In this document: in pieces, positions 3,982 through 62,826 of the stretch
How the letters are laid out: each line of letters begins with the position of its first letter
Position numbering within the stretch: position 1 is the stretch's first letter
From: Lytechinus pictus
Lineage: Eukaryota
Assembly: GCF_037042905.1 (NCBI RefSeq)
Contig: NC_087252.1
Span: forward strand, 5,830,001 to 5,894,000
DNA: 64,000 nt
Direction of reading: 5' to 3'
Made by a program: the position numbers and the translations under genes
The notes under the pieces: generated by a model
What the model was told of the DNA's origin: nothing
The model's database searches: none
The model's input: the letters and a program-made list of their open reading frames with translations, nothing else

Positions 3982-4179
3982 TTATAGAACTCCTCGAGAC
4001 CATATGATGCGTCTTGTGTACCTGGTAGGATCATCTCGGTTGGGCATGCATCGGAACTCTCTATTATCCGGTGAATAGTCGCAACTATAACCGTCGGGAC
4101 AGTCACACAGCCACCAGCGTCTGCTTCGGGCTCTTCCTCCGTAGCTATGGTAACACTGCTCATATTGCTTCACTCGACA
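3982..4179 (-). CDS. Last coding exon: 6-Cys CART-like domain
   Basis: Acceptor ttttttgtattattatcctcattttag|TGT. The only frame open from this acceptor gives CRVKQYEQCYHSYGGRARSRRWWLCDCPDGYSCDYSPDNREFRCMPNRDDPTRYTRRIIWSRGVL*. Cys pattern and the LCDCPxGxSC motif match CART by eye. Linkage to the upstream exons is inferred from strand and phase. Confidence 0.72.
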   Translation of the reverse strand, partial: CRVKQYEQCYHSYGGRARSRRWWLCDCPDGYSCDYSPDNREFRCMPNRDDPTRYTRRIIWSRGVL

Positions 4180-5920
4180 CTAAAATGAGGATAATAATAC
4201 AAAAAATCGTTACCTTTATCGTAGAAGTACCTATAATGTACAATGAAAATTGAAAGAAACAAAAAAAATCGATGGATTGAGGATTGACCTAAGACAATTG
4301 CTAAAAAGAAGAGTAGAATACGCTATCGTGCGCAGAGTATGTATGCATTTTTTTAATGGTGAATTAATTGGTATATGGAAAGACAGTTCACCAGTTGTTT
4401 TATAGGACATGGGATTAAAATTATGATATTGAAAAAATACAATACAACGACATCTGTTTAATCATTATTATCGTTATTATCATCACTGATATTATTATCA
4501 TTATTATTGTAATTATCATTATTATTATTATTATTACTATTTCCATTATTTGACCCTTCGGGTAAGGGTTGGTCTTAAGCCCATATCATCCTGCCTTTGT
4601 TAGACCGATGCGTATCCTTAAGTGTAATACAAAATTGGCCCTTAAATGGAGGGCAAAGGGGGTGGTGCTTTTCTACGAAAAGATGTCGGTTGACCGTCTG
4701 GGAAAAGAAGGAGTGGGGTTGAAGGGGGTGGTTGTGTTGATATGTCGGTGAGGGATCCTTATAAGCACTAATACTATAAGTTTGCTGAATGCTTCTAAAA
4801 CCTTTCCTTTCATGTGACACACTGCCTTGAATCATCTACAACAACTAGAAACTCGCCTCGCATTTAAGTGAATGACTTTAAGCCGGTTCTCTTGCAAACA
4901 AATACTCTCGGTTAATATATCTCAGTGACCTATTGCAGTGAGCATGTCCCTTTTTTTTGGGGGGGGGGGGTCAAAATGCAGCCTTCATGGCTCAGAAGAT
5001 TTATCATTTTAGAACATCGGGCTATTTAGATCCAGCATCAACAATTTCACCTAGAATGTTTTTTTTGGGCAACAACGAGCATATTAGAATCTCTTCGCTT
5101 TCCAATCAATCGTGAGCTTCATTAATACAGTGTTTAGAGGGATTGGATTGCGATTTATAAATGAATACGCGATGATTTATGCAATGGATTGCTATTGTTA
5201 GTGGTCATAAATCATCTGCGTGTATTACGTGCGTTATGACTCCATTTATAAACAGAATAAGAAAGTACAAGCAGATGCATGTTGTATACACATGCACAAG
5301 ATGCAGCGCATGCACACTGTTTATTTATAAAGATTGAATTTGGTAGTGGGGTAATATATAGTAGTGGATGATAAACTTCTTTGGTAGCTTGAATGATGAC
5401 TATATTATTAAAAACACAGATGACATTCATCATGGATAAAACTAGGAGTCCGAATTAGTTTGAACTATCTATGACGTTAACACTTCATCCATTGCTGGTC
5501 TTCAATTCCCACTGGGAAGTGTTCACTGATTCCTTCGCGGTGGAAACTATGCACAGAGGGTAGTCGCTGGAGCACCCGTCTACATGTATTTGCTTTGAAT
5601 GGTTTAATTGAGTACCAGACGGTGTCCCTTGATGATATTTCAATCAAAGTCGGACAACATGAAAGTATTTCCTTATTAAAGTTCTATGCCAATATTTTTC
5701 TTGCTTGAGTTGGATAAAAGTTTTTTAGATCTGTTTTTGTTGGGTTACATTCGTAATTCCGAAGGTTCGTTAGTCCGAAAACGAACTAAAGTTCGTTAAT
5801 GCGAAGGTTTGCTAATCCGAAAATGAAGTAAAGTTTGTTTTTCCGAAAATGAAATTGGTTTATTTTTGTAACAAAAAAAAAGGTGTTGTAATTAGAAAAT
5901 AACAAGATATCATTCAGTAA

Positions 5921-6158
5921 TACACTCTAAAAATCAAGGATTGAAAATAAATCCAGGTCAGCTTTGAATAGTGACCAGCCGAATATTAGATTTAGTTTTA
6001 AACCTTGTAGATTTCAATATAAATGAAAACAATTGGAATTTAAATGTTTTGAGATTTGATAATTAATCCTAAAGATTTGAAATAAATTTTCAACATTCTG
6101 CTGGTCACTATCCACAGCCGATCTGGATTTGTTATTAACCCTTGATTTTTAGAGTGTA
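5921..6158. mobile_element. Palindromic MITE with CACTC termini, TA-flanked
   Basis: TA-CACTCTAAAAATCAAGG ... CCTTGATTTTTAGAGTG-TA; the internal arms are also complementary (atagtgaccagc / gctggtcactat). Confidence 0.8.
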
Positions 6159-7808
6159 ATTTCAATGGAGGATGATACATGTGTATGTTGTGGTCAAAGC
6201 ATGTAGGAATTCGCGCTTGGATCAGACATCTTTTTGATTTTGATTTTCTTTGAGCAATTGCTGCCTGATCGAGCGAATGGATTAAACATGTTGGGGACTG
6301 TGTGTTGGTCACATGTAAATAACCTCCAGATAATGGGATTTTTTTAGGGAGGTTGTTTCATTTTTAACAGCTTCTGCTGATTATGATGAAAAAAAATCCC
6401 CGTAGGAAAAACAATTGCCCTTTTCTCAAAATGGAAAGTGCCCTTTTTTAAGTAAAAAAAAATTGACGTACTACGTAATACATTTCAGGTTAGAAAAATC
6501 ACAATTTTTGCTCGCGCTTCGCTCGCCTCAGTTATTATGTAGTAAGGTACTCACCCCTTTTCTGGTTATAAAATTATTAGAATGTCCAGTTTTCAGGTTG
6601 GAATATCATAAATTTTGAGCTCGCGTTTCGTGCTCGCGTTTAATTACTTTGGTTAAGTACCAATCTTGTTTCATTATTACGAGAAATATAAATATAAATG
6701 AAAAGGCTTCAATATCATTGCACTTCGCAGCAAAAGGCTTAAGTAAGTATAATTTACAGGTATGTATAGTAATACAACTGGTTAAAAACATCAAACATGA
6801 AATTACTCAATATAAAGAGTTATCGTGCTTTTTAAAAGGAAAAGTTGCTAGGATGCATCGCAAGCATCCTGATTTAAAAAGAAAGAGTAACGGGATTAAA
6901 GTAGACAAAAAACAGGAGTCCGGATACGAGCGAGCCGTCAAATCCAATGCACAGTTTCAGTCGAGAATCATTAAACCCACCTGCAAATAATTCCACCAGA
7001 ATGATGGAATTGATTATCCCATACCCTGGCAGAACAGAGAAAAGACAAAATCGGTTAACAACGACTGGAAGTGTGCCCTATTGCAGCCTATGAACAATTA
7101 CTTCTAAAACACACTTATATTCATACTACACTCATATATCAAGACCCAAGACACCAAAAGTGCCTTAAAACAACTCACTTAAACCCTTTCATTCAGCAGT
7201 CACCATGCACACGACGCACTCATAAAAATAGGGATTATAACAATATTGGGGGGGGGGGGTGAGTGGTGAGTGCTCGCACGTTCCAAAATAGACTTATCCA
7301 ACGAAAAACTGATCAGTAATGTCCACTACCACTTGCGGAGATTTTGATAAAAATGAGTTGGAATATTGGTATAGATATCCAAACACCGATTCATTAAATA
7401 TATTACAATGCTCTGGGTGTTTAATTTTCATTTCTTATTGAAATGTCCAAAAGTTTGAGCTTGCGATTAGCTCTCTTAACATCTCGCGCGGGATGCCCTT
7501 TTAACAGTACGGCCTAATTAGCGCCATAATTGACCAAAATGCGAGTTTTAGAACTTCAGATTTTTTTTTTTCAAACAGCGTAAAAAGCCTATAAAAATAT
7601 ATAATAATAATCATGAATCACTTCAAAAAGGCTTTGCTCAACTTAATTACTACAAAACACACAACGACAACCTCGTTATAAAAATGTCACCAAAAGGCCA
7701 ATTTTGACATATACGTGCCGTTTTTTTTTTTTTTTTTTTTGCTTTTTTGCTTTGCTCCGCCCCTAAAAGAAAAATATGTTCCGCCGCGCCCCTGCTTTCC
7801 CATCCTCG

Positions 7809-8092
7809 TACATTGTTATAAAAAAACTGATTTTACAGAAAAATCAAGATTTTGTAGAAAGCAATAACAGAATCATTATGTAAATTCATAAAACAGGAAT
7901 TTTTCTGCAATTTAACAGAACAGGTCTGTTTGAAAGGGGAAAAAGGGTGTTTTATTAAAGGAAATTTGTAAGGTTCCATACACCAAATACAAATTTTCTG
8001 TAATTTTACGTGAAATAATGTAAGATTACAGGTGTTCTCGAGACTCTGGTGCAGAACTTCTTTTATTTTAAGAATAAATTTCTTACAGTATA
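7809..8092 (+). mobile_element. CACTG-terminus non-autonomous DNA transposon, copy 1 of 3
   Basis: Closely similar to 14154-14455 and 37542-37798 (gcaataacagaatcatt...gtaaattcataaaacagg...gttctcgagactctg). Confidence 0.8.
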
Positions 8093-9420
8093 CAATTTGT
8101 AAATAAAACAGTCTTTCTACCCCCCCCCCCCTCCCTCCACCACGCTTTCCCTTCCGGTTTTCCCCGCTTCGCCGACCATTTCATTTTTCGAACTAACGAA
8201 CTTTATTTCATTTTCGGATTTACGATTTCATTTTCGGGTTAACGAGCCTTCGGAATAACGAACCTAAATTCCGTTTTCGAACTAAAGAGCCTTAGGAAGA
8301 ACTAGGGGAGGATCCAGAATTTTCCAACGGGGGGGGGGGGGGCAAATTTTTCGGAGGAAAATTTTGACAAGCAAAAAAAGTTTGGTGAGATTGAAGAGCG
8401 CCATCATATCATTCTTACTTTCACAACAGGTTCACATCCATGAAAACTTAATTCGCTTATCCACTTTATGTTACCCATTTCTCCGAAGGAAAAGCAAAAA
8501 TCTATCCAGCGCATTGATCTCTCTCCAACATTGTATCGTTTTGATATGCACAAAAATATAGTGCCCTATATGAATGAAGGGTCAATATTTTCTTTGAAAA
8601 ATATAAAAATCAACACTACTTCGTATAAAGCTGTGCAATTTGACCAAAAAAGTGCTGGTTTTCGTATGAATTCAGCCTTGCCTTCGCTTAATGACTATTG
8701 TAGTAACTTGAAGACATATGATTTTTTTTTTTTTGGGGGGGATGATTTGTGAAAAAAAAAAGGTTTTAAATAGGGAATATATATGAGGATGAAGGAAATG
8801 GAATAGAGTCAAAAAAAGTTTCATGCTTGACTTAGTATTTCTTCATGTTCTTGTTAGTGTTCAAACTTGTTTCACAGGAGCAGTCATGGTAATTGTCGAC
8901 CGGACAAACCCCACGGAATCCTTCGTTTCTAAGAATCAGCTTTGAAAATATTTGTTTTTAAGATTGCGTTTCCGTTTGAGTGGGATCATTCTCTATGTCG
9001 TAACTACGATACGAATGTGACGTCATATACCACTCTCGTATCAATGTTACATTATTCAAAGAAATGCATGACGTACTAAAGGAAGAAGAGTTCCGGTTGT
9101 TTTGTTGTTAGTCGTTGATGGTCGCCACTTCTCCAATGCGTCGGGGATGGTGGTGGTGGTGGTGGTGGTGGGGGTGGGGGGCGGGTGTTGTTGCATTAAA
9201 TAGATACCACTGTCGATATCCAGTATTAGGTGGTCAGGAACTGTCCTTCACATACATTTACATATGTTTATTTTGCATTATGAGTTTGATAATCATACGT
9301 GACTTGAATAGTAATCATTTAGAGTAATATAAATGAGCAGTTTGAATATATATATTTTAAATATTTTTTTTGTTGGCTTTTCAAGAAAAGAAAGAAAGAT
9401 TTTCTTTGAGAGAAGTATGG

Positions 9421-9528
9421 ACAGATCTACCTTGTAAAAACGGAAAGTATAATGTCAAATAATGATTTGATATTATATCAAACAATTATTTGATATTATA
9501 ATTTCTTTTTTTTACAAAGTAAACCTGT
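9421..9528. repeat. About 108-bp imperfect palindrome (hairpin or MITE remnant)
   Basis: acagatctaccttgtaaaaa...tataatgtcaaataat paired with attatttgatattata...tttttacaaagtaaacctgt. Confidence 0.6.
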
Positions 9529-12224
9529 TCGTGATTCTCGTCTAGAGAAGACATGAAGTAGCTACCCTTGAAATAGATAATTAATATTGTTATCATTATC
9601 ATTGATTTCCATTAGTTATCTAATTATCACGTAAATAAAAATATAAGAAAGCATTTATCAAATAGGGGATATGCAACACAGGTCTCGATACAATTATGTA
9701 GTACTTCAAGGCCAAGGTCGGATTATGCCCGCTGACTACCTTCTGGCTGACGTGGAGACTGGTCGTCGCAGCCTAGAGGTTACATCAGTGCAGTCATTTA
9801 AACCGAGGGATGCTTCTTACTAGAACTAGAATTACAGAAACATTGACGATACGGATGAGCGAGAAGGGTAACCAAAGATGTACCAAGGGGTAGTCTTTGG
9901 GCTACGGAGGTGACTTAATCGAGAAAAGGAAACTGAGATACATGTACACTGGAAACAGTGTAGAGGTTCTTTCCTGGATCTTATTCAGATATCATGCGTG
10001 AAGGAGGGTAATGATAGCGGCGAATTCAGGGAAGCTCTGACATTTTATCAGATCCACATCCGTAATGCCAAGTAGTCATTATGCATAGGTTTGCTGATGT
10101 ATTTCAAGATCGAAATACTTATTACTGTTGCCATAATCATTACCGGTGAACAGATTGGGGCGGAGGTATGGACCCGCAAAAATATCACTACTAATGAGGC
10201 AAAACGGGGAAAAGAAAAGGAATTGAAAACGTGTAAAATATGATATATTTTCGCGGTTTAATGTTGATATCTAAAGAAAATAGATTGCTGGTATTAAAAA
10301 GGCAATTTTTGCTCGCTTGCTTCGTTAGCTAGCATTTTTTTTTCCCCATACATGATGCCTGACCCACTCAAATGTTTTATCTCAGAACGCTTCTACATAA
10401 ATCATCATCACCACCATAATCACCATAACTATTGTCGTTGTCATGATGATCATCAGCTTATTTATTTAAATGTTTAATAGCGTCAGTATTTTCATTTAGA
10501 TTATGACTAGAGCATCAACATAATCATTGCTGCTTTGCTGCTTTTCATGTGATGTAAATTTGGACTTATGCAGTGCATGCTTGTGTCAATGAATCCGGGC
10601 ATCCATTATGGTGTAATTTAGAGATCAATTTTTTTTATGAAAAATAGTCATTTTTTATTACATAAAACGGTTTTATTCAATAAATATTTTTCGTTGGTTG
10701 AATACATATTTCTTGCAATTAAGTTTACTGCAAGTCACGTATGAAAGGATGGTCAATAATTTGTGTATTCTTCCTACCATTCATAACTTGGTACATTTTG
10801 AATCTTAGATCATAGACAAAGAATACCACCTCATAACTAAAGTCTAAACAATGCTAAGCATATACTCTTCATAATTTTGTTTTTCATTTATTTAAGTAAA
10901 AATGTCTTTAACGACATATTAGAGAGTTATCTCCTTTTTTAAAATCTTTGTTGTTATTAATTTCTATATGCTTTGAGACCATCCGTTTTCAAACCAAAAA
11001 TAAGTCACCCAAAATAAATTTTAAGTTAGTTATAAGACGTCCGTAAAAAATCGAGTCAAAGAAACTCGTGTACTTTATCTTCTATCTTTCTTTACAACTT
11101 CGAATTTTACCATGGAGAACGAGGACTCATTTAGATAAGCCTCTTTTATAATTTTGCTTTTTGAGACTGAATGTTTATTTCGGCTATTACAGAGAACCTT
11201 CCCCGGCAAATTATTGTTGGATTTGATTATCTGACGCCACGTCTGAACGATCCTATACATGTATAGTGATAGGGTCACGCAAGTTCACGCTGACAACGTA
11301 CAGACAATGAGATCAATTTCCCTTTTTTTTTTGGTTTTAATCAACATTGAGTGAATGAAATAAATCCTCTTCTTGGTCGTTTGAACAAGGCTGTTATGGA
11401 TCCAATAACTCGCTTGACTTGCCCGGGAATCTAATTCTGCGATGCTCAAATTCCATTACCAGCCTAAAAAAGGTGAGTATATATTACATCGTGGCTGTCT
11501 ATTCAATGTATCTTCTTCTTTCTACCTCTCACTACTCTTAACCGTTCCTACTATTATGCCTATCTTTATAACTTGTCTGATTTACTATCAATAAACTATG
11601 TTGTTTTGTTGAAGGCATTTTTAACATCGATTTGACATACGAAAAAGTGAGGATATATGAGGAGACTGCGAGTTACATGTATAAATAGGTATAGAAGTAT
11701 TGGGACAAGAAAATTCATAGAAATATTTTCGTGGGTTACACTAAGCATGCTTAAAGAAAGAGGAAAGTTTGGAAGATGAATGATGGCATAAAGATAGATG
11801 GGGACATATTTGAGTACTTAAATGAATCTAAGTGCATTGTTGGATCACTAATATGATGACAAGTAGCTACCACGCTGCCAGACAACAATCGATGACGTCA
11901 CAGTGCAACACTTCAACATTTATGACGTCACAACGGCAGTAGGTTTGCGTATTGATGATGGAGAGGGTCGCTTGGATCGATACAAACTTTTGATTTAATC
12001 AGCGAGAAAGCGTCGACTTCAATCTTCACCATTTAATAATAACAATTCTTATTTCAATTCAGGAGTCAAGTAAATAATCACCATTGATTTATTGAGGAGT
12101 GCGGGAACCATGAACTCATCACGAGTACAATAGATTTATAACAGGGTTGAATTGAATGGCTGTATATAATCCAAATGAATCCTCACTATCTAATTAACTC
12201 TCTACTCCATGTAACTATTTTTAC

Positions 12225-12306
12225 CGGAAGTAGTGCAGGTATACGTTCACATAGGTGCGTAGGCACCATTGTAATTTGAATCGGATTTGAATAGACGTTG
12301 AAATTC
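12225..12306 (-). other. Candidate internal or alternative exon (82 nt) of the CART-like gene
   Basis: Acceptor tttgtactctttcag|GAATTT and donor CCG|GTAAAA. In phase 0 it reads EFQRLFKSDSNYNGAYAPM*; in phase 2 to 0 it reads NFNVYSNPIQITMVPTHLCERIPALLP. Usage cannot be determined from sequence. Confidence 0.35.
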
Positions 12307-14153
12307 CTGAAAGAGTACAAATTAAACATTATACAAACCAGCATACATGGCATATGTAATGGTTCAAAAATAATCCGTGTAAACGAATGCAGTTGTCAAT
12401 CATTTAAAGTGCATTTATCGTAATTAAGTTTTAATTGAATAACTACAACCAACAAGGAAAAGGGAGTCCAAAATGTAGATAGAACTAGTAAACAAAAACA
12501 AAAACGCATGTATTTTGCTTAGAATAAATACTCAGAAAGACCTACTTTGTGGAAAGTATTGTCCACCCCCTGTCTCTCTCTCTCTCACACACACACACAC
12601 TCCCCGTAGCAAACCCACATTCACACACATCTAAATATTTTAAACATTTAAATCTTAGCGTAATTGGACATCTGTTTATTTCGATGTTTTGCTTTACTTT
12701 TTTTCCAAGACAAATTAGGTTTTAAATTTTTTTAATGAAAATTCAGAATAAAATAAATCATCATTCCGAACTTCACGAAGTTATTTTGACATTTGTCACA
12801 TTTTCGTTGTTTTCACCATAGTCATTTTTATTTCAATTGTTGAACGTGCTTAAATATCTTCCAGGGTGAGCATTCGTCCTTTGCTTCTACCAATAACACT
12901 GTCCCCGCCCCCGACGCCTTTTACGAGATCATTGCTTCTCATTATTAGAGATATCTCAAAATGAGTTCGAACAGAATCCAATAAAATGACCACCCAAGTG
13001 TTTGCACATATAACAGAAAAGAAAGCCAAATGGCTCTAGAAAAAAATGTAGTTGCTGAGAAATGAGCAAAATAAGCACGGAATTCCATAAAATGTCAGGT
13101 ACTTTCCCCCCTTGAATATCAATGCACAGGCCAATATATTACCTTTTTATGTTAGTGATCATCAGAAGTATCGGTGTTCAACTAAGATTTCCTGATTTCA
13201 CAAAGACAAGTTGATTTCAATACAACATATATCTAGATCTGTGACAACATGATGGCAATTAACCTTTTCTTAAAAGCCTTTTCTGGAAATAATTAACGTT
13301 GGCTGTAATGATTTTCTTTTACCTATTATCAAATAAAAATACATGATTGTTTTGTTTACATTTTCGGGAAAAGGGTGAGTTCTCATCGCCTACTCTACTA
13401 ATACAAACAATTATAATAAAAACCTTTCCTAGATAATAACATAATAAATTTACGACTTTGGATAGGCCGTATGTAGTCCCGTGGTGACTGTAATGGCAAA
13501 GTATAGTAAATCAATTTATTTAGGAAAGATGAATTTCACTTATCTCTTCATCATCGGGGACCTGGCTTTAACGTACTTAGGCAATTATTTCCACGGACTC
13601 ATATACAAAAGGACCATATCCCCATTGTTTATTTAGAAGACATCTAATACTCTCTGGTTACACCAAACGACCCGACCCCCAACCGACCAATCATATGCAA
13701 CTAGTGATGACGTGATCGTTTTGTCGTTCTTAAATATGTTCCGCATGTGTGACAAGAGCATAAGGAATAATCTAACATTAGATATTAATAATAATCAAAA
13801 AGTTCATTTGGAAAAATAGTAAGGATTAAAATTAATGAATTGAAAAAAATATAAACTGGAATTTTAAAAACAAATGCATCGTCTCCTGAAATAACTGTAT
13901 TATGTCGTAAGAAATGTTGCTTTTAGATAAACGCGCTGATTTTGTCGGTCCTCTGGTTGCTTGCTTACAAGCATTCATGCTTTCTTAGCAATCAGGTAAA
14001 AAATCACCACCAATACCAATACCAATACCAATTTGAATTGCATTAGCTAAAGTAGACCTTGCCGGGACTTGATAACCAGGCCGTTACGATACCCGCCAGC
14101 CAAACAAACAAAAATGTATCAAACATTGACATTTTTAACAAAAATATTAATGA

Positions 14154-14455
14154 TACACTGTTAAAAAACCCTGATTTTACAGACAAAAAAGATTTTGCAG
14201 AAAGCAATAACAGAATCATTCTGTAAATTCATAAAACAGGAATTTTTCTGCAATTTAACATAACAGGTCTGTTTAAAAAGGGGGAAAGGGTGTTTTATTA
14301 AAGGAAATTGGTTAGGTTCCATATACCAAATACCAATTTCCTGTAATTTCACGTGAAATAATGTAAGATTACGCAATCTGGTAAGATTACAGGTGTTCTC
14401 GAGACTCTGCTGTAGGAACTTCTTTTATTTCAAGGATAAATTTTCTAGCAGTGTA
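14154..14455 (+). mobile_element. CACTG-terminus non-autonomous DNA transposon (EnSpm/CACTA-like ends), copy 2 of 3
   Basis: TA-CACTGTTAAAAAA ... TTTTCTAGCAGTG-TA terminal inverted repeats; about 300 bp, repeated three times in the window. Confidence 0.85.
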
Positions 14456-17400
14456 CTTCGTCCAAGAAAAAAATTGACAAGCAAGAAACAAAGCAAAACA
14501 ATAAAAAACAAGAAAGGTCTTCATTCTAAGGGGGGGGGGGCACACTTCTCTTTAACGGAATTTTACATTACAAATTTTAAGTGTGTGTCTCTCAAGATGG
14601 GGGGGGGGGCACGGGCCGGGTTTGCCCCCTGGATCTGCCAGCGAAGATAGCAAATCAGTTAACACATTAACACTGACATATTTTATTAAAACCGATATAA
14701 TTCAGGAGTTAGAATGATTCAGAAAATGGAAAATTCAGAGAGTAATATTTGTTTTTTTAATAATCTTTTTGACACATTTCCTCTCGCTTTTCCTGATAAA
14801 ATAAACTTTTATGTATTTATTTAAATTCAATTCGCATGAGGGTCGGATTGGTAAACAACAGCGTTAATAACTATAGCCTGAAACATGTAAATCATATAGG
14901 ACGGATAACTGCTGACATGTTTATGTTACAAAGTAGCTTTTAGCTGAGACAAGCCGTCATTCGTAACTTTATCACTTATTCTAAAACAACGTATATGTTA
15001 TAATTAGACTGATAGAAAATAGAAATCACCTTAAATTACATTGGCATAGGAATATAATTTCAAACGAGTTAACCTTGAGCCAACTTGCCTTCTACAATAC
15101 AAAAATATCTGAATATAGACTGATTTGTAAAAATGAACAGAATACAGAGATAAGGATTGTTATTTTTCGGAGGATTATTCAGACAGCTTTCCTATTTAAT
15201 GATTTGCGCATTTTCAAAATATTTCGCCCGGGTATATCATTGTTGCTGACATTTAATAAAGCGGCATATCAAATGATCTTCACCGTTTGTTCAAATAACA
15301 ATTTATAAACATAATGAATATATATATCAGAAACGATACACATAATTATAAATACATACACTAGAGGCAAGAAGTTTACGTACACCAAGGAAATTCAAAG
15401 AAAATTTAACACATACCAGACATCCTAAAAATTTAATGTATCTATAAAATATTTATGACGAATTTGGAATCAAACAAATGAGTATGTCATGCCCCTTCAT
15501 CGCGTTACTTTGTCATCAGGATCTGAACAATATTTAGGTGTGTCATTTCCCACCCCTCCCCCCAAATCTTCACATTTTAGACAAATTAAAAAAAAAAAAT
15601 CATATTTGTGCTAGTTACTTCTCAACACAAATATTTCAGATTACACTTTTTTGTTAAATGGTGACATATCACCAAAGAAAATGTAATATAAGTGATATAT
15701 TTGACATTTATATATTTCTACGAAAAGATGTGTGAAAATATAACAAACAATAGAATACATTTGGCACGAATTTTTTTTTTTTTCTTCAAAGAAAATCCCA
15801 CTGAAATATGCTTTAATCTCAACGGCATCCCAATCACGTGAAAGCTCTTTGATTGATACCAAATTCGTCATGGTAGTATTCATATTTCTGAAGATATAGT
15901 ACATTTTACGATGATATATATATATATATATATTCATATATTATACATATATGCATATATATGTATGTGTGTGAGTGATTAAAACTCCAAAGTTTATAAG
16001 CGTTTTTCTTTGATGGATTTTGGATTTTGTTCCAACTTTCTTTATTTCATTTATTCCGTTTTCATCTATTTTCACCAAATGCAGTCTGACTTAACATATT
16101 GTACTCTGCCATTTCATTCTGTTTTGTTTAAGAAATTGAGTAGTGTTGACCAAAAGAGGCTGCTCTGTCACTTTCCCGTACTCAATACAAAATACATGTA
16201 TTTACACAAATTCAGTGACACCCTTTCAATAGTCAACTTCTGTTTCAGGACCTCCGCGGTTGTAGCTTCATGAACTTTCACTGAGTTATTATTATATTTG
16301 GGTGTTAATAGTTTGTATACTCATTTTATTTTCCAGTAGTTATAAATGTAGCACTATTTATCACAAGATATTTTGGGGGATTCCGCTTTGCTTTTGACAA
16401 GTATGAAATTATCCTATATCCACAGTTTTTTTTCTTTCTTCCTTGCTCGTGATATTTATTTATTCATTTCATCTTGTTATCATGGTAATATTCCCTAATT
16501 CGTGCTATAGTCTTTCATCACAAATCTGTCTTGTGATCTTCAATAAATTTGTCATCACCCGTTGATGACGTCTATATTTCGTTTGACATGTTTGTGAAGA
16601 TTCATCTTCGAGAGTCTGAGTTGGACTTCATCCGGGTATTCCTGCCCGTCGGTGTAAATTTGAGCAAACATCTCACTTTACAGAGCAAATATCATCACCA
16701 CCATCGATCAATATATAGAACCACACTCCACAAATATCCTATCCAGAGTAGCCTTCAAACACTGCATGCATCTTGCCAACAAAATAGTTGTCATGGTTTT
16801 AAATGCGACGTTACAGATTAAAGCAAAGTAATGAAACCATGACACCTTTATATTAAGACTAGCCGAATATTCATGACATTAGTAACAATTAAAGTTTGTT
16901 CAAATGATTATGAAACACACTTGATTGAAATTATACTGTATAAGATTATTATCACTTTCACTAATTTTGCAATTATTGATAACATTAATTTCCGGCTACG
17001 ATTGATATTGCTATTTTCTTGTAATCGTTACTCTACTCATCATCATGAATTTAAAGTTGTTTGAATATATATATATTATCTAAGTGATATTTTCCCCAAA
17101 TATTCACACACACAACTTTACCTTAAAAGAATAAGGCATATTACATGCTTTACCAAAGAGTGTACGTGTGTTCTAATCTATAGCTCATTGCAATGAACAG
17201 CCAGCACATTGCATCGCACACATACGCACCCCCACACACAACCGTACGCGCGTACCCCAACAACACGCGCCCATATGCGCACACACTCAGTATATATTAG
17301 ACATGTTAGACCACTCGCCAATTCATATTAACATCCTTCAACGACTACACACCCACCAACGCCTACAAACCCACCCTCACCCACACTTCGCACATACACA

Positions 17401-31581: not shown

Positions 31582-31611
31582 TTACTTCTTCTACTACTAC
31601 TACTACTACTT

Positions 31612-31642
<31 letters not shown>

Positions 31643-32884: not shown

Positions 32885-33159
32885 TAAAAATAACAATCAT
32901 AGCTGGATTTATATAACGCTTTTTCCCTATGGATGCAAAGCGTTTGCTATTATTACCTGACTATAGCTCGAGCTACCATCACCGGTGCTCGAGGCATGCA
33001 ACGAATTAATCCTGCTTGGTATCCATTTACCTCACCTGGGTCGAGTGCAGCACAGTGTGGATAATTTCTTTCTGAAGGAAGACACGACATCGCTAGGATT
33101 CGAACCCACGAAACCCTGTTTGAAAGCCGAGAGTCAGAGCCCCTAGACCGCGACGCGCT
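32885..33159 (-). mobile_element. tRNA-derived SINE
   Basis: Minus strand tRNA-like head with A-box-like cgcggtctaggg and B box GGTTCGAATCC, then core ccacactgtgctgcactcgacccaggtg, then a LINE-like tail aagcgttatataaat. A related copy lies at 59791. Confidence 0.75.
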
Positions 33160-33999: not shown

Positions 34000-34120
34000 C
34001 TTGAACATCTCTGCGGATGATACCCAAATCAAATGCTTTCGATACACAGCTAGAAATACCAATACGACCAGGTTTGTTGGTTTCCCAAAAACTCAATCCC
34101 ACTTAATATCCGCATCAGAA
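34000..34120 (+). mobile_element. Possible highly decayed non-LTR reverse transcriptase fragment
   Basis: Reads SADDTQI (compare YADDTQ), then after a frameshift WFPKNSIPLN (compare W-x3-N-x-L-x-LN of CR1/L2 RTs). Short and weak. Confidence 0.3.
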
Positions 34121-35372: not shown

Positions 35373-35532
35373 CCTTGGTCACATTTGTTCTACGGGGGCC
35401 GTACGGCGAGTCGAAAACAGCCGTTTTAACATTTTGTGTACCAACTATACATATAGGTGGTTTGAATTAAAATCAATAAAACGGCTGTTTTCGACTCGCC
35501 GTACGGCCGCCGTAGATCAAATGTGACCAAGG
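35373..35532. mobile_element. ~160-bp palindromic MITE, copy 1 of 2
   Basis: ccttggtcacatttgttctacgggggccgtacggcgagtcgaaaacagccgtttt pairs with aaaacggctgttttcgactcgccgtacggccgccgtagatcaaatgtgaccaagg. Confidence 0.85.
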
Positions 35533-37541
35533 TTTTAGTAATACTTGTTGTGCATGAATAACCGAGGATGCTCCTTGTAATAACGTTGTGGATGAAAATG
35601 TCATTTTGCAAGATCCAAGGCCCGTTACGGTAAGAGTTACTTTCAGAGGCAAGCTAAAGAACGAATGCTATCTCTAACGGTTCACTAGTGACGGGTAGAT
35701 TTGGATTCACAAAAAGAAACAATCATGAAGTTATGATTGACAAAGGTATTAGCATCATGTCGCTTGATGATTACGTTCACATTAAACTTGGATTAAATCT
35801 GAAAAATAATTACCTCTATCGACACCATCTAAACAATAAACACCTAAAGGTCTTGCACAATGCAGGATTGCAACACTTTTTTCAAAAAACCTTGGTAAGT
35901 GCACAACTGTATGCACTATTAACGATTTATTAGCCCAAAGACCAGACAGTCGCACCAGGACATTGGTTTGTAACACTTTACAAAGGTATCCCAACTGGCA
36001 AGAACGCAGTGTAACCGATCATTTAGATGCGTTAATATATCTAAGGTAGAAGAGAGTGCTTACAATGTGGAAGCATCTTCGCAACGCTAAATGGTACATT
36101 CTGGTGCAAATGATATTTCACACATTGTAGTCCACAGTGTGAACACATCTTGAACTGACTATAAACACACCATGTGACATTTTTTTTTTTTTTTTGCAGG
36201 AACTATACTGGTGATTCGGGAAATAATCACATAATCATTTAAACTTGGGATGCCTTAACAAAGGTAACAACACGTCTCTTTGGTGTATTATTTCTTTTTT
36301 TTTTCAAAGAATAATTGCTGCCTTTCTGCAAGGATATTTTAGAGTCGCACTTTTCTCATTAGTCCCCTCTGGAGTATTTTCATTAGTGTTGTATTTCATG
36401 TTAATGTTTATTTTTCATTTTCTATAGAGCAGAGCATTCTCCTCTCACTTGTTCAATCGGTTATTTTTTTTTCCGTGAGGGATTTTGATTTGCATTTAAA
36501 TTAGGATTACCAATAGCAAAACATGAATTCCATTTTCCAATGGAATGTTATCTTTTGAGAATTCGCTAAAAAGATTCCATACATATATCCTCGATCAACG
36601 ATTCCTATATTAATCTCGATGGGTGTTACGCGTTATTACAAATGCGATGAATCGACGTGTCTTAGAACGTGAGTGGCATTTCAGAAGAAAGTTGCAAAAG
36701 CTCAAAAAAGAGACATTCTTAACAGAAAGCTCTGAACGAAAGACATGAATTTTGTCAAAGTGAGAAATGATTGAAGGGGGGCGGGTGGGCGGCACAAGTA
36801 CCCCAAGTGAAAATACAAATTTAAACCAGATTTAAATCGTCATAAGGACGGATAAGGTGGCCTGTCGTATAGGTCTCCGTGCCCGAAAAACGAAAGAGGA
36901 AGGCTATCAGCAACTTTCATCGCGCTGCAAGATAACCTGTCGGGCCGCGCCCACCTTAGTTAAGAGCAAGCATGCGCTGCATGGAGCATGGATGACCAGT
37001 CCAGCCAAGGAGATAGGTCAGTGGTCTGGATGACCAGTCCAGCCAAAGAGATAAGTCAGTGGTCGATACCTATAATCAAGGAGATATCACCATGTCTAGT
37101 CATTCACATTTCTGCTCTCCCACCAGCCTTGCACATTCGCAAGCAGACACGCTCACGGACAAAGTTGGTACCAACGAATCTATAGTATCTCATCAATCTG
37201 CATATAAACTCTAAGCTAGTTCTAGTTTTAATTGGCAATTTCGTGGTGAGACACGTGCATTGTGTCATTCTATCTTATATACAAAGTGTATAATCATTTT
37301 CTTTTCTTTCAAAATTGCTTTAGTTATAACAACTTACTTATCCCCCATTAATTCATCAGAGTATTTTTTTATCTAATTTGATCTATGCAGATAAAATGAA
37401 ATATTAAAATGTTCAAATCACCAAAATATTTCAAATGCAAACCAAACATATTCCTAAAGTATCAAACGTTATTCACTAATGACCGAATACAAAATGTAAT
37501 TTTGGTAGGGATGATCTGGAAGAAACCTGTGAGGGGTTGAC

Positions 37542-37798
37542 TACACTGTTAAAAAACCCTGATTTTAAAGAAAGCTATAACGGAATCATTCTGTAAATTC
37601 ATAAAACAGGATTTTTTCTGCAATTTAACAGAGCAGGTCTGTTTAAAAAGGGGAAAAGAGTGTTTTATTTAAGGAAATTTGTAAGATTCCATACGCCAAA
37701 TACCAATTTCCTGTAAGATTACGCAATATGGTAGGATTACATGTGTTCTCGAGACTCTGCTGCAGGAACTTTTTAAGGACAAATTTTCTAACTGTGTA
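37542..37798 (+). mobile_element. CACTG-terminus non-autonomous DNA transposon, copy 3 of 3
   Basis: Starts tacactgttaaaaaaccctgatttta; same internal sequence as the other copies, with small deletions. Confidence 0.8.
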
Positions 37799-38412
37799 AT
37801 TCTTACTTGGTATTCTCGTCCCGATCAATATCCGTTCCTTGAAACGTTCCTTGGGGGATATTTACTCTCTGAATGGACTCTTTGCATATTCGGAAGGTTA
37901 CACCAATATTAGGATCACACTGGTAATACACTTCTTTGCTTGTTTATTAAAACGAGGTTGGCAAGGGCTCCGTGGAGGCTGAATATATATAGCTTTTATT
38001 CCAACCTGCCGGTAAAAGGGCCACCTTTTACGCACTTTACACTTAGGTATATGCTTACGAAAAAGGTCAGCCATTCTTGTGTCCCAGTTAAGATTCTAAC
38101 GCCTACCTGTCTTGCACCCTATGATGCATATCAAAAGGGCCTGATAGGTTATTATAATATCGTAAATAATTGCTTACGATTGAGAATTTGTTTCTTAAGG
38201 TATTAGAATATCTCTTTTTTTCAAAATGACAAAACAATACCCCACACTGTTAAACAATAATGTAAGTTACCAAAAAATATTAGATTACTATAAATTGTTT
38301 CTGATGGAGGATAAACTTTCCGGAATGTTTGTTTGATGCAATCTAGTTAACGTTATAAAATAGTTAAGTGTCATTTTTTTAAGAGTAACTGTGTTACAAA
38401 GTATTTAGTATA

Positions 38413-38582
38413 CCTCAGTCACATTTGCTCTACATTGGCTGTACGGCGAGCCGAAAATAGCAATTTTAACATGTTTTGAACCAGCTACATGTACATATAA
38501 CTATGTAAATTTGAATAAAACATGCATAAAAAGGCTGTTTTTGACTCGCCGCACGGCCGCCGTAGAACAAATGTGACTTATG
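38413..38582. mobile_element. ~160-bp palindromic MITE, copy 2 of 2 (more diverged)
   Basis: gtcacatttgctctac...gtacggcgagccgaaaa pairs with ttttgactcgccgcacggccgccgtagaacaaatgtgac. Confidence 0.8.
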
Positions 38583-41500
38583 TTATGGTAAACGCATGGT
38601 AAACAGGTCCCCTTTGAATTTGAAGTTTGTTCCGCAGTGTGTATATGCTTTATTGGCCCATCAGATATGCCCAAAATATCAGTTTTGCCTGTCTTTGATT
38701 AGGAGAAAAGACATAAGGCTCTTGAGTATATTTTTTATTTCATTTTATAATTTTCTATATTTTGCTTACTGTCCCCAAGAACACAAAGACTATGTAGGTT
38801 CCGTTTTATATTATTTTGTATTATATGCTTTACAGGAAGTTTTTGCTTTGTGGTAGAGAAAATGGGAAAAAATGTCGAGCGTAGATAATTATTATTTTTC
38901 TCTCATGTATACAATCATGACAATGCATGTTATATATGAAGAGCACATTCACACGAACAAAAAGCTATGCACTTTAAGTTATTAATCTTCATAATGGACA
39001 AGGTTCATTTAGACAAACTTGATTGTAACTGGTATAGGTATATCATCATTAACATAATTTTCACTTCGTATTTACGAAACATATTTTCTCAAATTAAATG
39101 ATGTATGAAATCATTACTGCGTCGCTGCGATTACCCGTGAATCCATTAAGTATTATGAAGTGGATTAAGCATCTTAGATGAAAAAGGGGTATATTTAATA
39201 ATCTTTTCCCTATTGCGCCGTTGATAAAACTGGCTAGTTTTTTTAAGAACAGTTGCAATATCATATTTCCAGTGTTTGATATGATACGGAATTATTATTA
39301 ACAAGAATTCAGTTAATGACCATGAAGAAGACTTCAGATAGAAAAAAAGAGACATTTCAAAACCTGGACCATTGATTTACAAAGAACGGATCATATGATT
39401 GAAAACAGATTTTGAGAATTAATCTAGTTTATTTGTTCTATTAAAATACATACCATGACCTTTGAATCTTACAGCAAGCGTAAAACCAACAGTATTGGAT
39501 CATGAAATTAATTTACATAATTATTGGTTAATAACGGTCTTGCCTCCCTCATTTCCAAGATGTGCGGGAAATACGAGATATATTATGATCCATGAAAAAA
39601 TCAATGTTTAAAAATCATATTTACTCATTATATAGATAATAATAAAAAAATTAGGAAGTCGGTCCGCCTTGCCCACTAAACACTTTGTTCGAGCGCAGTA
39701 ATTACTGAGGCATGCAGTGCACGAACAAAATCTTGTAAGCAAAAGGGTTTTTTTCCACGCGGTTGAAAGTCACGTTTATGCAGGCGCGTAGCCAGGGGGC
39801 CGTGGGGGCGGTCGCCTCCCCCCCAAAAAAATAAAAAGCGCTCCCAAAAAGAAAAGAAAAAGGGGAAAGGAGAAAAAGAAAAAAGCAAAAGGAGAAAAGG
39901 GAAGAGAGGTAAAGCTTTGTTGTTTTCTCCTTCTTTTGGGGTCAAAAGAATAAAAAACCTAAACGAGACGTTTTTCTCTTTCCATACAACATTTTGCTTT
40001 TTCTTCTTAATCGAGTTATAATCTAAGAAATATCAAAATTAGAACAGGTTAAAGTTTTAGAGATTTTGTTTTAATATTCAGAGCTTAAACGCCATTCGCG
40101 GGAAGGAATAGCGCCCTATTTCATTCCTGTATATATATATATATATAATTATAATTTATAATTACTATACATATGATATGCTCAATAACAGGAATGCATA
40201 CTTAGGCCTACTAAGAACCAACCATACGACCTTGACAATCCCTTTCATTGTTCTTTATCGCACTGCATAAAACGTTGAACTTATACATATTCAATCAATG
40301 ACTTATAATTGTGTTCCCATCGATATATCCTTCAATTGAGTATTCAAATAAACGGTAGTTTCTAGAAAGAGTCTTGACTCTTGTGTCTTTCAATTCCAGC
40401 AGTATTCGTGACGTGTAAACCCGCACGTAAATTTGATCCCAAGTGTGTTTAAATACCTGCTCGTTTGACCTACTTCAAGGTGAAAGTTGGATCTTTGAAG
40501 TGTCCTTACGCCGCGTACGTTGAGACAAAATCAACATTTTCAGGGCTCACTGGCCTGGTCCCACGTGTGTTAACCGATCTCCTGTCTTGTTTATTATACG
40601 TTTGGTAGTGATTTATTAAACAGGTGTTTCTTTCACGTTTTTATTCAGCCAAACGTCCTTGCACAGCAAGTCACAGCAATGCACCATTCTCTAATAATCT
40701 TTTGCTCGAAGTAAATGTGCAAATTTTCCCTTATTCTCTATCTTTTCCTGTCCAAATTCTTCTTATCCATCATCTCCGTCTATTTAATCCAATTTCCCTT
40801 GTTATATCTCTTTTCAGTCCCCCCCCCCCCCTTCAGCGTTCTGACCATCTCCTGTACGATATAATATTTACCTATAGTTCTGCTATTCTTTATTACGCAT
40901 TAAACTGACGTGAACCAAATCCATGTAGTGTACTCTTTTCTCCTATTTTCACAAAATAACATCCTTAAGACTAAGTCTCCCCTTCATGATATATTCCCTG
41001 TCTGTATATGGTATGGCGTATTAATAAATTCGTCAATATACCTTTATAGAAAAAAAAACAGTCTTCATCCTAATTTTGTTTAATATTAATTTCTAATCAC
41101 ATTATGATTTTAATACACAGCAGTCACTCATAAAGTGTAATCGGAGACATTCCAATTCAAAGCTTAATTGAATGACATATCGTATTCGTCTTCATATCAA
41201 AGGATTTATGAAGTACCTTTTATTAAGAAGTGCTTGTCATCGTTGACCTTATAATACTTTCACATCTACCGCAGAAAGCCCGTTGGTATGAAGATTAATG
41301 CCCTTTGCCCTGTCCAATTCGAAAGAAGGACTAAGCGGACAGCAAGAATAATATATCTTACGAGGTATTATACTGTATATTATATTGTTTGTACTGTCAT
41401 TCAAGTATATGGACATCCTTTTAAAGGTAAGGACTCTTTCTAGTGATATTCATAGTTGAGAATGGTTTCATTTATTTTGTTTGGGAGGTGATTGATATTA

Positions 41501-42873
41501 TTTCGCTTCTGAAAATATTAAAGCCGATTTTCTTCCATATTATTGTACATTTCATCATCATCGTCATTGTCGTCGTCATTATCATCATCATCTCCATCAA
41601 CAATAGTCACCGTCATTTTCAACATCACCTTCAGTGTTATCATTTGTATCACTGTTCATGTTGTTCTCACTTTCGATGATGATTTGTTTTTTTTATATAT
41701 TTTGTTTTGTAAATTTGCTTCATCGGTTGGTATTTCTTCAATTGTGGTTTTCTTTTAAAGATTATATATTATTGACATGTGGTATATTTGTCGATATCGT
41801 TGTAGGAATCTTCTGATCGATATATAGTTTCGATTTGTCAAAATAGGGAATTAAAATTGGGTAGATGAATTGAAGAATAAATATGATAAAATAATAGTTC
41901 GTTTTAATCATATCAAGGAAAATGGCGAGAGCATATAAAAATATGTCTGGTTTAGACTACTAAACGAGTATACGACACTTTGATAATTTATATATTACTT
42001 ATTCGCTGGCCGACAGCTCAATAACAGGATAACCAACACAAATATTGATACAATTAGCGTCGATTGGTAGTTATAGATATTTGGAAAGCACTGCGTCTCT
42101 TATTTAGTGCAAAATTCAAATACTTGCTCAGGCTATTTAAATCATACAATCAGTATCTTTCGTCTGTGGTCAGTACGGTTTGTACGACTACAATGTGGCG
42201 AGTAACCAGAGGTAAATGGTAGAACATTGTGAATAATAACTTCTAGATAAAAGTAGGATTAAATATGAATGTTGATATTATCCTCTTTACTTTTCTACTT
42301 AAAAGGGCAAAAAACAAATCATAATGACATTTTCCCCAAACACAAGAGTGATCCAAGCATTCTTGAAGTTAACAGGGGAAAGGGTTTGTCAGGTATCTAT
42401 CATGTCAGGAACTTGTACACTGCTTCAAAAACAGAACTTGGGACCCTTATGCTATTCACGTTTGGATTCAAATGGTCCAGCCGTTTACACTTCCATGTCT
42501 AAGAACTTGTCGTTAAATTATATCTCAGAGGGAGAGAGATGGGGGGGGGGGGGAGAAAGCAGCAGTTTCATAGATATTCCTTTAATACCAATGATCATGA
42601 TGATCGATGTGGTTTGTCGGACTACTCTAAACTTGAAGAGACCTTCAAGTAAGAGCAACTGTTTTGAGTATTTGTATGTGCTTTTTGGTTTGGCGATTAG
42701 TTTATTATTCGTTTCGTTCGAATTTAGGAATTAGCTCGCAGGGGAATTACGAAGCAGTCATCTACCACCTGTCTAACGCGTATGGTCAGATTGGATTGGC
42801 GCGTGTCGAACACGTGATTCATGGTCTGAGGTGGGGTTGAACTTCTGTTTAAAGTCTACAAACGGATAACATA

Positions 42874-43676
42874 CAGTGCGTCCCACAAAAAAACGAAACC
42901 GAGATTTATCGATGATTTATCATAACTTAATCACAAATACAATAGACAATAAAGCTTCGAATCTCCTCTTTCATCTGAAATTACCTAGATTAATTCTTAT
43001 TCACGCATGAGTGAGCAAAAACAATTAGAAGAGGGGATACCAAAAAGTCACTTGGTGGGCTGTATCTGGGTTGAAAAAAACCCACATTTTCAAAAGTTCA
43101 GTATCTGCTCTTTAATTTTATACCTCAATTACAGAAAATGGGCAAGAAATAAAAAAGTTCTGGTTATTTGAAATAAGGCTTAAATTTCAATAATTTCATA
43201 ACATGAAGATGTTTTACAGGCTAGCGTTCAAACTCACTCGATACTCCGTTTTGTTGACGATCAGCCATGCATTAAGTCTTTTGTTAACCGTGCGATAGCT
43301 TCTGTGGGGAAACCGGTGAAAACACGTTTATTTAATGAAATTATGGAAATACAAGCATTGTTTCGAGGGAACATAACTTTTTTATTTCTTGACCATTTTC
43401 GGTGATTAACGTATCAAAAGAGAGAGCAGATATTGAAATTTTTAGGCATGTGATTGTCTCTTTGAAATTCAGATACCCCTGCCAAATGAGTTTTTGGTAT
43501 CATTTCTTCAAATTGTTTTAGCTCACTCATGCATGAATGAGGAATAATCTAAGTACTATCAGATGAAAGATGAATTTCTAAGCTTTACATTGGTAGATAA
43601 TTTTTCTATTGTATTTATGATTAAGTTATGATAAATCATCGCTAAATCTCGGTTTCGTTTTTTGTGGGACGCACTG
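42874..43676. mobile_element. Tc1/mariner-type non-autonomous element with long TIRs and TA target duplication
   Basis: TA-CAGTGCGTCCCACAAAAAAACGAAACCGAGATTT ... AAATCTCGGTTTCGTTTTTTGTGGGACGCACTG-TA. Complementarity extends roughly 300 bp inward; there is no transposase ORF. Confidence 0.88.
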
Positions 43677-45372
43677 TATAGTTGGCAGCTTTTCTCACTC
43701 ACACTAATTCCTTAAAGGGGTAAAATTTTAGTTTTAAATGTTTTTGTTTTTTGTCCCGCAAGAGTCTCTCTTTCTCTGTCATTTTCATACTGGCCCCTTA
43801 CTTGCTTGCATGTGAATTATATCACACCCCTCTCCTTATATTTTTATTTTCTGTTCCCCTATATTATGCTCGAGATTCATTAATTCCCTTTCATATCGAC
43901 ATTCTTACCATCTTTGAATTTTTATATCTCAAGGGATCCATTTGATAATCATTTATTTATTTGATAACAAATTAATAAATAGATTGATTAATTAATTTTT
44001 ATTAATTAATTGTTTCATTCATTAATTTTGAATTTCATTCATACATTCATTCATTCATCCATTTATTATTTTTAAATCTTATTTACTTATATTTTTTTTG
44101 TAATTACCTTATTAATTTGGGGTTTATTCAAGTAAATTTAGTTTGCTTAACATTTTCTCATGTATTATAATTTATTTGTCTATTTGTGCTTTTATTCATT
44201 TATAAATTAATTAATGTAATTAGTTGTCTATTTATGTCTCATTTTAAGAGGGAATGTTTGATTTATTGATTGAGTTAGAAACATGTTTTCGGTCGTTAAT
44301 CTTAGATATCATGATCTTCCACTATGCGGTAACAAGCCAATACTACCATGACCACACATGAATCTTAATAAATAGAAGCATTGGTTTGGATACTTGATTG
44401 CAATATTAGCATTTACCAATTCATCCAAATTAAACAGCGCGAGCGCACTTTCAAGACCTTCGCGATTAAAATCAGGCATGCTATTCGTGTCTGTGATATT
44501 CTACTACGTCAACCAATATTAATGACCAATAATGAAAAATTACTTCTCACAAATAAATTAAATGTTGATGTTGTCTCTCACAAACTTCCGACTTTATGAT
44601 AGCATAAAAGCACAGCGGTATTTTATTTTTATATCTGAATCGTTTTTCCCATCAAGTTTGATGGTATCTTAAATTAGATACAAGGTAATGCCATACATGC
44701 ATTGTGTACAATTAACTAGACTCCATATTTTATTTTAGACTGCATTGAATAATATTGATAATGATATATAATTTATGTCATTGAATATGCTTATAGTGTA
44801 TTTATGACAACGATTCGTTTTGTAAATGGTTGTCATAAAACAATGAAAATAATTTGTATTATACTTCATGGTCTGTTGGAATAAAAACTTAATTTGAATT
44901 TGAATTTGAGTAATACCAAAATGTATCGATATTCATTAAAGGCAAAAAGAAGCTGCTGAAAACTGCTTATCTAATAAAAAAGAGCCAATGTAGTAAATTA
45001 AGAAGTCAAAAAGGGGGCCTAAGCTTTTGATCCTAGCAAAATCTTTGTCGGAGGCAAAATGACAAACATATAAAAATATATAATATTCATTAAAAGCAGA
45101 TTGAATAGAAGATAAGAAAGATGTATGCACAATCAAACTAATGAGATTTATAGAAATTGCGGTAAAGGGTTGATTTCAGACTACCACGTAAACACCCATT
45201 TGGAAAATAAATCAAGCATAACATTGATTTGTTTTAAATGAAGTTTTCTTAGAATAGTATGCCATTTTAAAGTTTCCAATTCTTCAAAAATATTCATGCG
45301 CACTATAATGGTCTGCAAGTATACGAAAGCTGATGTTGTCACAATTTTATTTTGCATTTCTTTGTATTAAGA

Positions 45373-45406
45373 TATACATATATATGTTTATATATATATA
45401 CATATA

Positions 45407-45451
<45 letters not shown>

Positions 45452-45480
45452 ATATATATATATAAATATATATATATATA
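45373..45480. repeat. (TA)n microsatellite
   Basis: Direct inspection. Confidence 0.95.
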
Positions 45481-46340
45481 TTTGATGGTACTGGATTTCC
45501 CATAAATGTATGAGAGCAAAAATAACATTGTGGAAAGGGAAAATAAAATAAACTTTAAGATAAGTTGTGTGACGTCATCGGGTTCCATATTTGCATCTAT
45601 CAATTCTATTTTGTGCGTGGGTGTGTGTTGGGGTGTAAGTGTGTGTGCGTGGGTGAAATTTAGCAAAACGGGAAAAATGCTTTATTCAACTTTTGTATCC
45701 TCTGTCCAATGTTGATATTTTTCCAGATCTTAGCCTGATTTACATTTCTTTATTTATTTAATCATTCTCTTTTTTGTCAGGGAAAATGTACTTTTTGTGA
45801 AATGACGTCTGCTATCTTCCTAGAGATATAAACGCTTTTTTTTTTCGATGTACATGTATGTAGTAATGTAACCGAACGATCTTAAAATGATTGAAAATTT
45901 TGAAAAGGTATGAAAGTAGCTTAATAATCCGATTATCATATCATAGAGATTATTTCATAACGAAGTTGGTGCTTTTCTCAAAGGTATCAAAATTCGCCGT
46001 GTGGGTAAGAGAGGAAGATGATTAGCAAATTGTGCATACATCTCTCCCCGACTCTTTCCGTCTTCCCTTTTTTGTATCTCTGTTTTTTCTCTCTCACTCC
46101 TCCTCCTCCCTCTTCCTCTATCTCTCACGCTATGTCTACACCTTTCTCCCTGTTAACCGATGACACATGTGCATTTTAAAATTATGAAAAGTAAAAAAAA
46201 TTGAAAACACACACACACTTTTTTAAATTTATGATAACATTAAGATAGATCTTTGAATCATACATCACATTTTATAGGATATGGATTCCTTATTGTATGC
46301 CTACCATTGATCGTAAATGCACTTTAAAGAATATACTTAC

Positions 46341-46430
46341 ATCCATGTTATTCTTTGAGTATCTTGCTTCTGTAATAATAACCAAGGCCAGCAAAAAAGC
46401 AACAACTGAAAGTTTCATCCAACTCCCCAT
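46341..46430 (-). CDS. Coding exon 1 (signal peptide) of a putative CART-like secreted peptide precursor
   Basis: Minus strand ATG at 46430 reads MGSWMKLSVVAFLLALVIITEA/RYSKNNMD: basic residue, hydrophobic core and a T-E-A cleavage site. It ends at a consensus donor GAT|GTAAGT, phase 0. A TATAAA box lies about 65 nt upstream of the ATG. Confidence 0.85.

Positions 46431-62732: not shown

Positions 62733-62736
<4 letters not shown>

Positions 62737-62826
<90 letters not shown>

Follow-up and report, generated by a model that had tools for sequence, protein, structure and literature searches.

A spliced four-exon sea urchin gene for a predicted secreted six-cysteine protein, a CART-like candidate in Lytechinus pictus

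Is the CART peptide family confined to chordates, or does a sea urchin gene with a six-cysteine domain belong to it as well? In vertebrates, CART plays a major part in appetite and reward. The gene that raises this question lies on the minus strand of a 64,000-nucleotide stretch of the Lytechinus pictus genome (assembly GCF_037042905.1, contig NC_087252.1, positions 5,830,001 to 5,894,000), here termed the window, to which positions refer unless another locus is named. A first-pass annotation, made from the letters of the window alone, had joined three exons spread over 42 kb into a CART-family precursor of 103 amino acids (aa), and had treated CART as a vertebrate peptide. The latter view is outdated. 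In 2026, proto-CART was reported from tunicates and lancelets (Ciona intestinalis, Styela clava, Branchiostoma floridae and Asymmetron lucayanum) and, according to the accessible text of that report, on which all statements cited from it here are based, CART is still an orphan ligand and has been traced no further than these two groups (PMC13364575). As described below, the sea urchin locus is a real gene. It is expressed and spliced from four exons, and its product is a six-cysteine protein with a predicted secretion signal. This protein is probably a divergent true CART homologue, that is, a proto-CART.

The gene and its transcripts

Of the 22 runs, four were mapped over 2600-4450. Three of these consist of contigs, X15 and X1 from organism A and X7 from organism B, while the fourth (X20) consists of raw reads, of which about 6% were read and three mapped, none of them over a listed joint. 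The records of X15, X1 and X7 do not describe these runs as RNA; they are taken as RNA because they contain spliced joints and the gene has a single genomic copy. In all three runs, contigs diverge from the genome at 4181/4186 and then read exon 2 and the end of exon 1. The overhangs of X15 and X1 contain all of exon 2, and that of X7 most of it with one synonymous change; the last 8-13 nucleotides (nt) of exon 1 are joined to it in each run. Both long junctions, 46341>29403 and 29380>4179, thus exist in transcript-like sequence from two organisms. The three minus-strand exons of the first-pass annotation (46430-46341, 29403-29380 and 4179 downward) are accordingly present, with GT-AG borders and with the first two introns in phase 0.

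While the joining of exons 1 to 3 stands, the C-terminus of the 103-aa model does not. A third intron (4021-2906) had been overlooked. It is removed in X15, X1 and X7, with spliced depths of 34.5, 57.5 and 22.4, respectively, compared to 2.6-2.9 for intron-containing sequence, and in the main form the last 12 residues of the model, together with its stop at 3982, fall within this intron. The main product is a protein of 101 aa from four coding exons, and a form that retains intron 3 and yields the 103-aa reading is no more than a minor one. One low-depth X1 contig with an 11-nt insertion terminates at 3817, shortly after an AATAAA at 3825 (window 3817-3969, minus strand). It could represent an intronic polyadenylated form that yields the 103-aa reading, or it could be a contig break.

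The 101-aa product contains cysteines at residues 39, 47, 63, 65, 71 and 82, followed by a 19-residue tail. The resulting spacing of 7-15-1-5-10, with C-x-C at Cys3-Cys4 and then five residues to Cys5, is as first described. The single adjacent basic pair of the product, R58-R59, lies within the domain. The cleavage site of the predicted signal peptide was placed by eye from hydropathy. It had been suggested at the outset that an upstream cysteine-rich exon might turn the protein into a ten-cysteine fold of the prokineticin, astakine or colipase type; such an exon is absent in the transcripts seen, and exons 1 and 2 are free of cysteine.

Organism B departs from the genome at two synonymous sites among 195 coding bases, compared to 21 sites among 272 bases of the 3′ untranslated region (UTR). 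The two rates differ by Fisher's test with p=0.0008, or p=0.007 if three unplaced differences are counted as coding. The reading frame is under purifying selection, as measured across a short distance only.

Exon 3 has one match in the 811.7-Mb genome, on contig C8, and the six-cysteine pattern has one occurrence in a six-frame scan of 264 kb. A bindin gene (E=1.5e-67) marks the genome as that of a sea urchin. Rival loci were sought genome-wide with two shorter core motifs in place of the full six-cysteine pattern. No rival six-cysteine locus is present among the 10 matches to the first motif besides this one, or at the 23 places examined for the second motif, for which 100 of 125 matches were listed. 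Of these 100, 78 are copies of one tandem repeat, one of which was examined, and the other 22 were all examined. On contig C20, the second motif is absent among the matches listed, although a motif interrupted by an intron would escape such a search.

The features of the gene are listed in Table 1. There is no upstream ATG within 143 nt 5′ of exon 1. The X15 contig, with 255 overhanging letters, possibly starts further upstream than the TATA-like box. At the other end, one contig of 2912 nt continues past 2600, and the 3′ UTR may extend to the start of the window. A possible additional exon, a 17-nt AG..GT stretch at 4230-4214, was rejected, as it is used by no contig or joint.

Table 1. Features of the six-cysteine gene and their positions in the window
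Feature	Position	Strand	Description and basis
TATA-like box	46495..46500	-	putative, from sequence only; 70 nt upstream of start codon
Coding exon 1, residues 1-30	46341..46430	-	predicted signal peptide (about 1-22), then first part of propeptide; phase-0 donor; translation, hydropathy
Intron 1	29404..46340	-	16,937 nt, GT-AG, phase 0
Coding exon 2, residues 31-38	29380..29403	-	24 nt, 8 codons; no KR/KK site
Intron 2	4180..29379	-	25,200 nt, GT-AG, phase 0; ends directly 5′ of Cys1 codon
Coding exon 3, residues 39-90 and part of 91	4022..4179	-	158 nt; six-cysteine domain at 4179-4048
R-x-R-R, residues 56-59, in Cys2-Cys3 loop	4117..4128	-	candidate convertase site; cleavage predicted from sequence
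Intron 3	2906..4021	-	1116 nt, GT..AG, phase 2; joint 2905/4022 in three runs
Exon 4, coding part: end of residue 91, residues 92-101, stop	2872..2905	-	spliced contigs
3′ UTR, part covered by mapping	2600..2871	-	contigs

Likeness to CART in sequence and layout

In a search of the PDB with exon 3 read as 65 aa, CART (1hy9) is the sole match at E≤10 (E=0.54). With the 45-aa domain as query, CART is one of two matches and the sole cysteine-rich one (E=0.35, 14.7 bits). Among the 24,736 families of Pfam, exon 3 alone matches two, of which CART is the second (11.3-11.8 bits, E=0.29-0.41), and CART is not among the Pfam matches obtained with the 65-aa reading of exon 3. It has been reported that the proto-CARTs of tunicates and lancelets match Pfam CART only under relaxed settings (PMC13364575). 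As judged by these scores, sequence likeness to CART appears weak and consistent in direction.

The layout of the gene points the same way. Intron 2 ends exactly before the Cys1 codon, as in chordate CART genes, and published alignments open with a conserved amphipathic stretch where exon 2 begins (PMC13364575). When residues 29-38 of the sea urchin product are compared with three 10-residue motifs that open exon 2 of vertebrate CART, they yield BLOSUM62 scores of 16-18, which are reached by 0.2-0.6% of random 16-mers and by 0.1-0.2% of shuffles, in a comparison chosen post hoc. The order of signal peptide (by hydropathy), propeptide and C-terminal cysteine domain matches that of CART, and the size of 101 aa fits with the 102-147 aa of tilapia and seabream precursors (PMC13364575). 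The intron before Cys1 and the likeness of the propeptide helix would lend support to a CART reading.

Two groups of known genes offer a closer comparison. Chordate proto-CARTs likewise have a six-cysteine exon that opens with Cys1, a match to Pfam CART under relaxed settings only, and a single gene, which in Ciona comprises four exons, as here; they differ in having a chordate host and a dibasic site in exon 2, while the present gene is non-chordate and lacks that site, a distinction drawn by description and not by alignment (PMC13364575). Vertebrate CART/CARTPT (PF06373, 1hy9; CART1-6 of PMC4436185, in its accessible parts) has in common with the sea urchin protein a predicted signal peptide, a short propeptide with what may be a similar helix, a six-cysteine domain at the C-terminus whose core around Cys3-Cys5 is the same, a similar precursor size, and an intron before Cys1. 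Vertebrate CART differs in having a KR/KK site and linkage to MAP1 and CRTC, neither of which is found for the gene here, which in addition carries its tail on a fourth exon.

A number of observations weigh against membership of the CART family. None of the similarity scores is significant. The Pfam CART profile, which the first-pass annotation had named as a check, gives a score far under the 27-bit cut-off, and the top Pfam match is the Lustrin cysteine repeat (E=0.03-0.05). An unrelated designed protein ties with CART in the PDB search of the 45-aa domain. Moreover, two other genome loci, on C7 and C20, match Pfam CART at 17.2 and 18.3 bits; both are non-coding, do not show the six-cysteine layout and were discarded as noise. 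Since these loci outscore the gene itself, the score alone proves nothing. The cysteine spacing differs in three places from the 5-11-1-5-6 of chicken CART1 and CART2 (accessible parts of PMC4436185), and it is intermediate between that of CART and that of the colipase half-domain (9, 13-17, 1, 5, 7-13).

The layout also departs from that of CART in several respects. Intron 1 lies two codons inside the helix-like stretch and not before it as in vertebrate CART, exon 2 comprises 8 codons compared to 28 in human CART, and the 19-residue tail and its extra intron are foreign to vertebrate CART. No KR/KK site precedes the domain, whereas published work treats a dibasic site as a feature of CART (PMC13364575, PMC4436185), placed in exon 2 by the former paper. 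The intron bases around exon 2 (window 29356-29409, minus strand), when read in frame, extend the likeness to the helix by 2-3 residues on each side. It could be, as a matter of speculation, that splice sites newly arisen within exon 2 made it shorter and removed the dibasic site.

Synteny provides a further point against. MAP1 and CRTC paralogues are neighbours of CART (accessible parts of PMC4436185). In the sea urchin, both families are located on C20, while the peptide gene is on C8. MRPS27, IQGAP, MAST and carboxyl transferases, which are markers from human chromosome 5q, are found on C5 (MRPS27 and IQGAP), on C11 (MAST) and on C19, C16, C3 or C11 (carboxyl transferases). None of the six marker families is on C8. 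This absence of shared synteny counts moderately against orthology; genes can move between chromosomes.

Structure prediction adds little in either direction. Two single-sequence AlphaFold2 models consist of four strands in two hairpins (pLDDT 79-82, pTM 0.38-0.39). Foldseek with these models returned no match at E≤0.001, and VIA-align reached a best Z of 2.3 in a wide search and none in a second look. Neither the CART nor the colipase fold is among the fold-search matches listed, for queries that were low-pTM single-sequence models.

The following path from precursor to action may be envisaged. The signal peptide would be cut after about residue 22, and the domain would fold as two beta-hairpins with bonds Cys1-3, Cys2-5 and Cys4-6, as in CART. 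As there is no KR/KK site, either the 79-residue chain would be released intact, or a single basic residue (K38) would serve as the cleavage site before release. A cut in the R-x-R-R loop may generate a two-chain, disulfide-linked form. If kinship with CART is a guide, the peptide would leave neurosecretory or gut endocrine cells and act on a cell-surface receptor, probably a G protein-coupled receptor.

Other possible origins of the domain

The same domain might have arisen in echinoderms if the part of a prokineticin/astakine/Dickkopf-type domain that holds its C-terminal six cysteines turned into a secreted protein of its own. Likeness to CART would then reflect a deep fold or convergence and not orthology. 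This origin as an independent half-colipase peptide is considered unlikely. It is favored by the spacing, which is no nearer to CART than to the final six cysteines in the ten-cysteine domains of this genome, and by the lack of both a dibasic site and synteny in common with vertebrate CART. The last six cysteines of colipase-fold domains (PF06607) show a similar C-x-C-x5-C arrangement. Given the disulfides of prokineticins, a half-domain would also be expected to pair cysteines 2-5 and 4-6, and such a peptide could not be told from CART by connectivity alone. However, phmmer gives 0.7-4.1 bits to three such domains from the same genome compared to 14-14.7 bits for CART, and cysteine-anchored scores are no better than those of shuffles (reached by 231, 916 and 246 of 2000). 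In Pfam and PDB at E≤10, there was no match to prokineticin, colipase or Dickkopf, and the PF06607 profile does not match exon 3; its search of the genome gave five places, none of which is this locus. Prokineticin, astakine and Dickkopf domains have ten cysteines and are encoded by separate genes on other chromosomes. In addition, both astakine-like loci carry all ten cysteines in one uninterrupted frame, which means that an intron before the fifth cysteine would have to be new, and the helix-like stretch of the propeptide would be left unexplained. It would be extremely improbable that the domain is instead the C-terminal half of an actual ten-cysteine prokineticin/astakine protein, or that the exons come from different genes. 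While the spacing is compatible with a half-domain, and four runs over 2600-4450 leave room for a rare isoform, exon 3 is joined directly to the two cysteine-free exons 2 and 1 in three of three contig runs, which refutes this reading for the main transcript. Separate ten-cysteine genes also exist on C7, C3 and C18.

It is quite improbable, too, that the protein is an unrelated lineage-specific cationic cysteine-rich peptide, with a role in defence or paracrine signaling, whose likeness to CART is due to chance. All similarity scores are within noise, with Lustrin at the top in Pfam, and the loop is rich in Arg and Trp, as this explanation would have it. Defence peptides are usually multi-copy and fast-evolving, whereas this gene is present in a single copy and shows no amino-acid change between organisms that are about 8% apart in the UTR. 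Moreover, three separate CART-like features, namely the domain, the intron at Cys1 and the propeptide helix, would have to coincide. Among peptides already known from echinoderms, np11 and np15 (renamed eclosion-hormone-like) are likewise secreted, about 100-110 aa long and endowed with six cysteines; they differ by an acidic spacer, the eclosion-hormone cysteine pattern and, in np15, a dibasic site, according to a comparison by description only (accessible parts of PMC4772807 and PMC5627052). The eclosion-hormone family gave no match in the Pfam search, and the product described here has neither a dibasic site nor an acidic spacer.

Divergent CART homology is the preferred reading. With less assurance, though still on the favorable side of an even chance, the gene may be regarded as the first non-chordate CART orthologue, dating to the deuterostome ancestor or earlier, which has kept the exon-3/propeptide layout, lacks the dibasic site, and has a possibly cleavable loop and a tail. 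Because its spacing differs from that of CART, its score lies under the cut-off, no dibasic site is present and linkage is not shared, the gene is filed as a CART-like candidate and not as a family member. What had been proposed as a CART-family precursor in an echinoderm is thus a spliced six-cysteine gene with a hydrophobic N-terminus, for which membership of the CART family is not established.

The names of the astakine-like and Dickkopf-like loci in this genome (L006, L007 and L009) were assigned from their cysteine pattern. The astakine/prokineticin-like ten-cysteine exons at L006:1501-1737 (C7) and L007:1501-1734 (C3) show an unusual 7-residue gap between Cys2 and Cys3, and the L007 exon has no match in the protein collection searched.

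Genomic surroundings, novelty and meaning

Exons of cell-surface genes of the immunoglobulin (Ig) superfamily begin some 15 kb upstream of exon 1 and lie on the other strand (window 61742-63200, plus strand, and L011-L014). At least two tandem Ig-domain genes with a likely transmembrane exon are located there, and their nephrin/kirrel-like character is an impression only. Downstream, in convergent orientation, lies a soluble guanylate cyclase gene with HNOBA and catalytic domains (L022:9449-9619 and L021:739-909, plus strand). Its region also holds a reverse transcriptase with GIY-YIG, Penelope-like by domain content (L022:4452-5932, minus strand), and a second reverse transcriptase piece (L021:3891-4286, minus strand). 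Repeats include a unit of about 1036 bp, present in at least 73 tandem copies on C8 (33236763-33322524) and in more on C258, and a 24-bp minisatellite of 14 copies at window positions 60470-60810, which is open in several frames.

The gene has apparently not been described so far. Among top-ranked results from the open-access literature, no echinoderm or other non-chordate CART was found, although the same searches also missed PMC13364575. In the accessible parts of echinoderm neuropeptide catalogues and a review, there is no main-text mention of CART, and elsewhere the word appears in a reference list only. Motif searches in the supplements of such catalogues yielded orexin and a TRH-2 tail only, with nothing related, and CART entries in NeuroPep come from Chordata only. 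A word search of protein databases and a search of 1.84 billion representatives returned no homologue. An astakine-like exon of this genome, used as a control query, gave no match either, which makes these protein-database results uninformative on novelty. The sole match among the 1.84 billion representatives, P0003, is a bacterial-type repeat protein that has only a short Trp-Cys motif in common with the query, and was rejected. The ESM Atlas offers one mostly arthropod cluster of 112 aa at 0.78 as a lead, and no usable named match.

Even if the protein is not CART, the locus would still represent an undescribed, conserved gene for a predicted secreted peptide that is absent from the echinoderm neuropeptide catalogues searched. 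If it is CART, the origin of the family would move to the deuterostome ancestor, and the family would extend beyond chordates. A distant genome would thereby be added for profiling the unsettled receptor of CART, and the receptor question would become more testable, as echinoderm orthologues of any candidate receptor should exist and react to the peptide. Sea urchin larvae permit in situ and knockout work.

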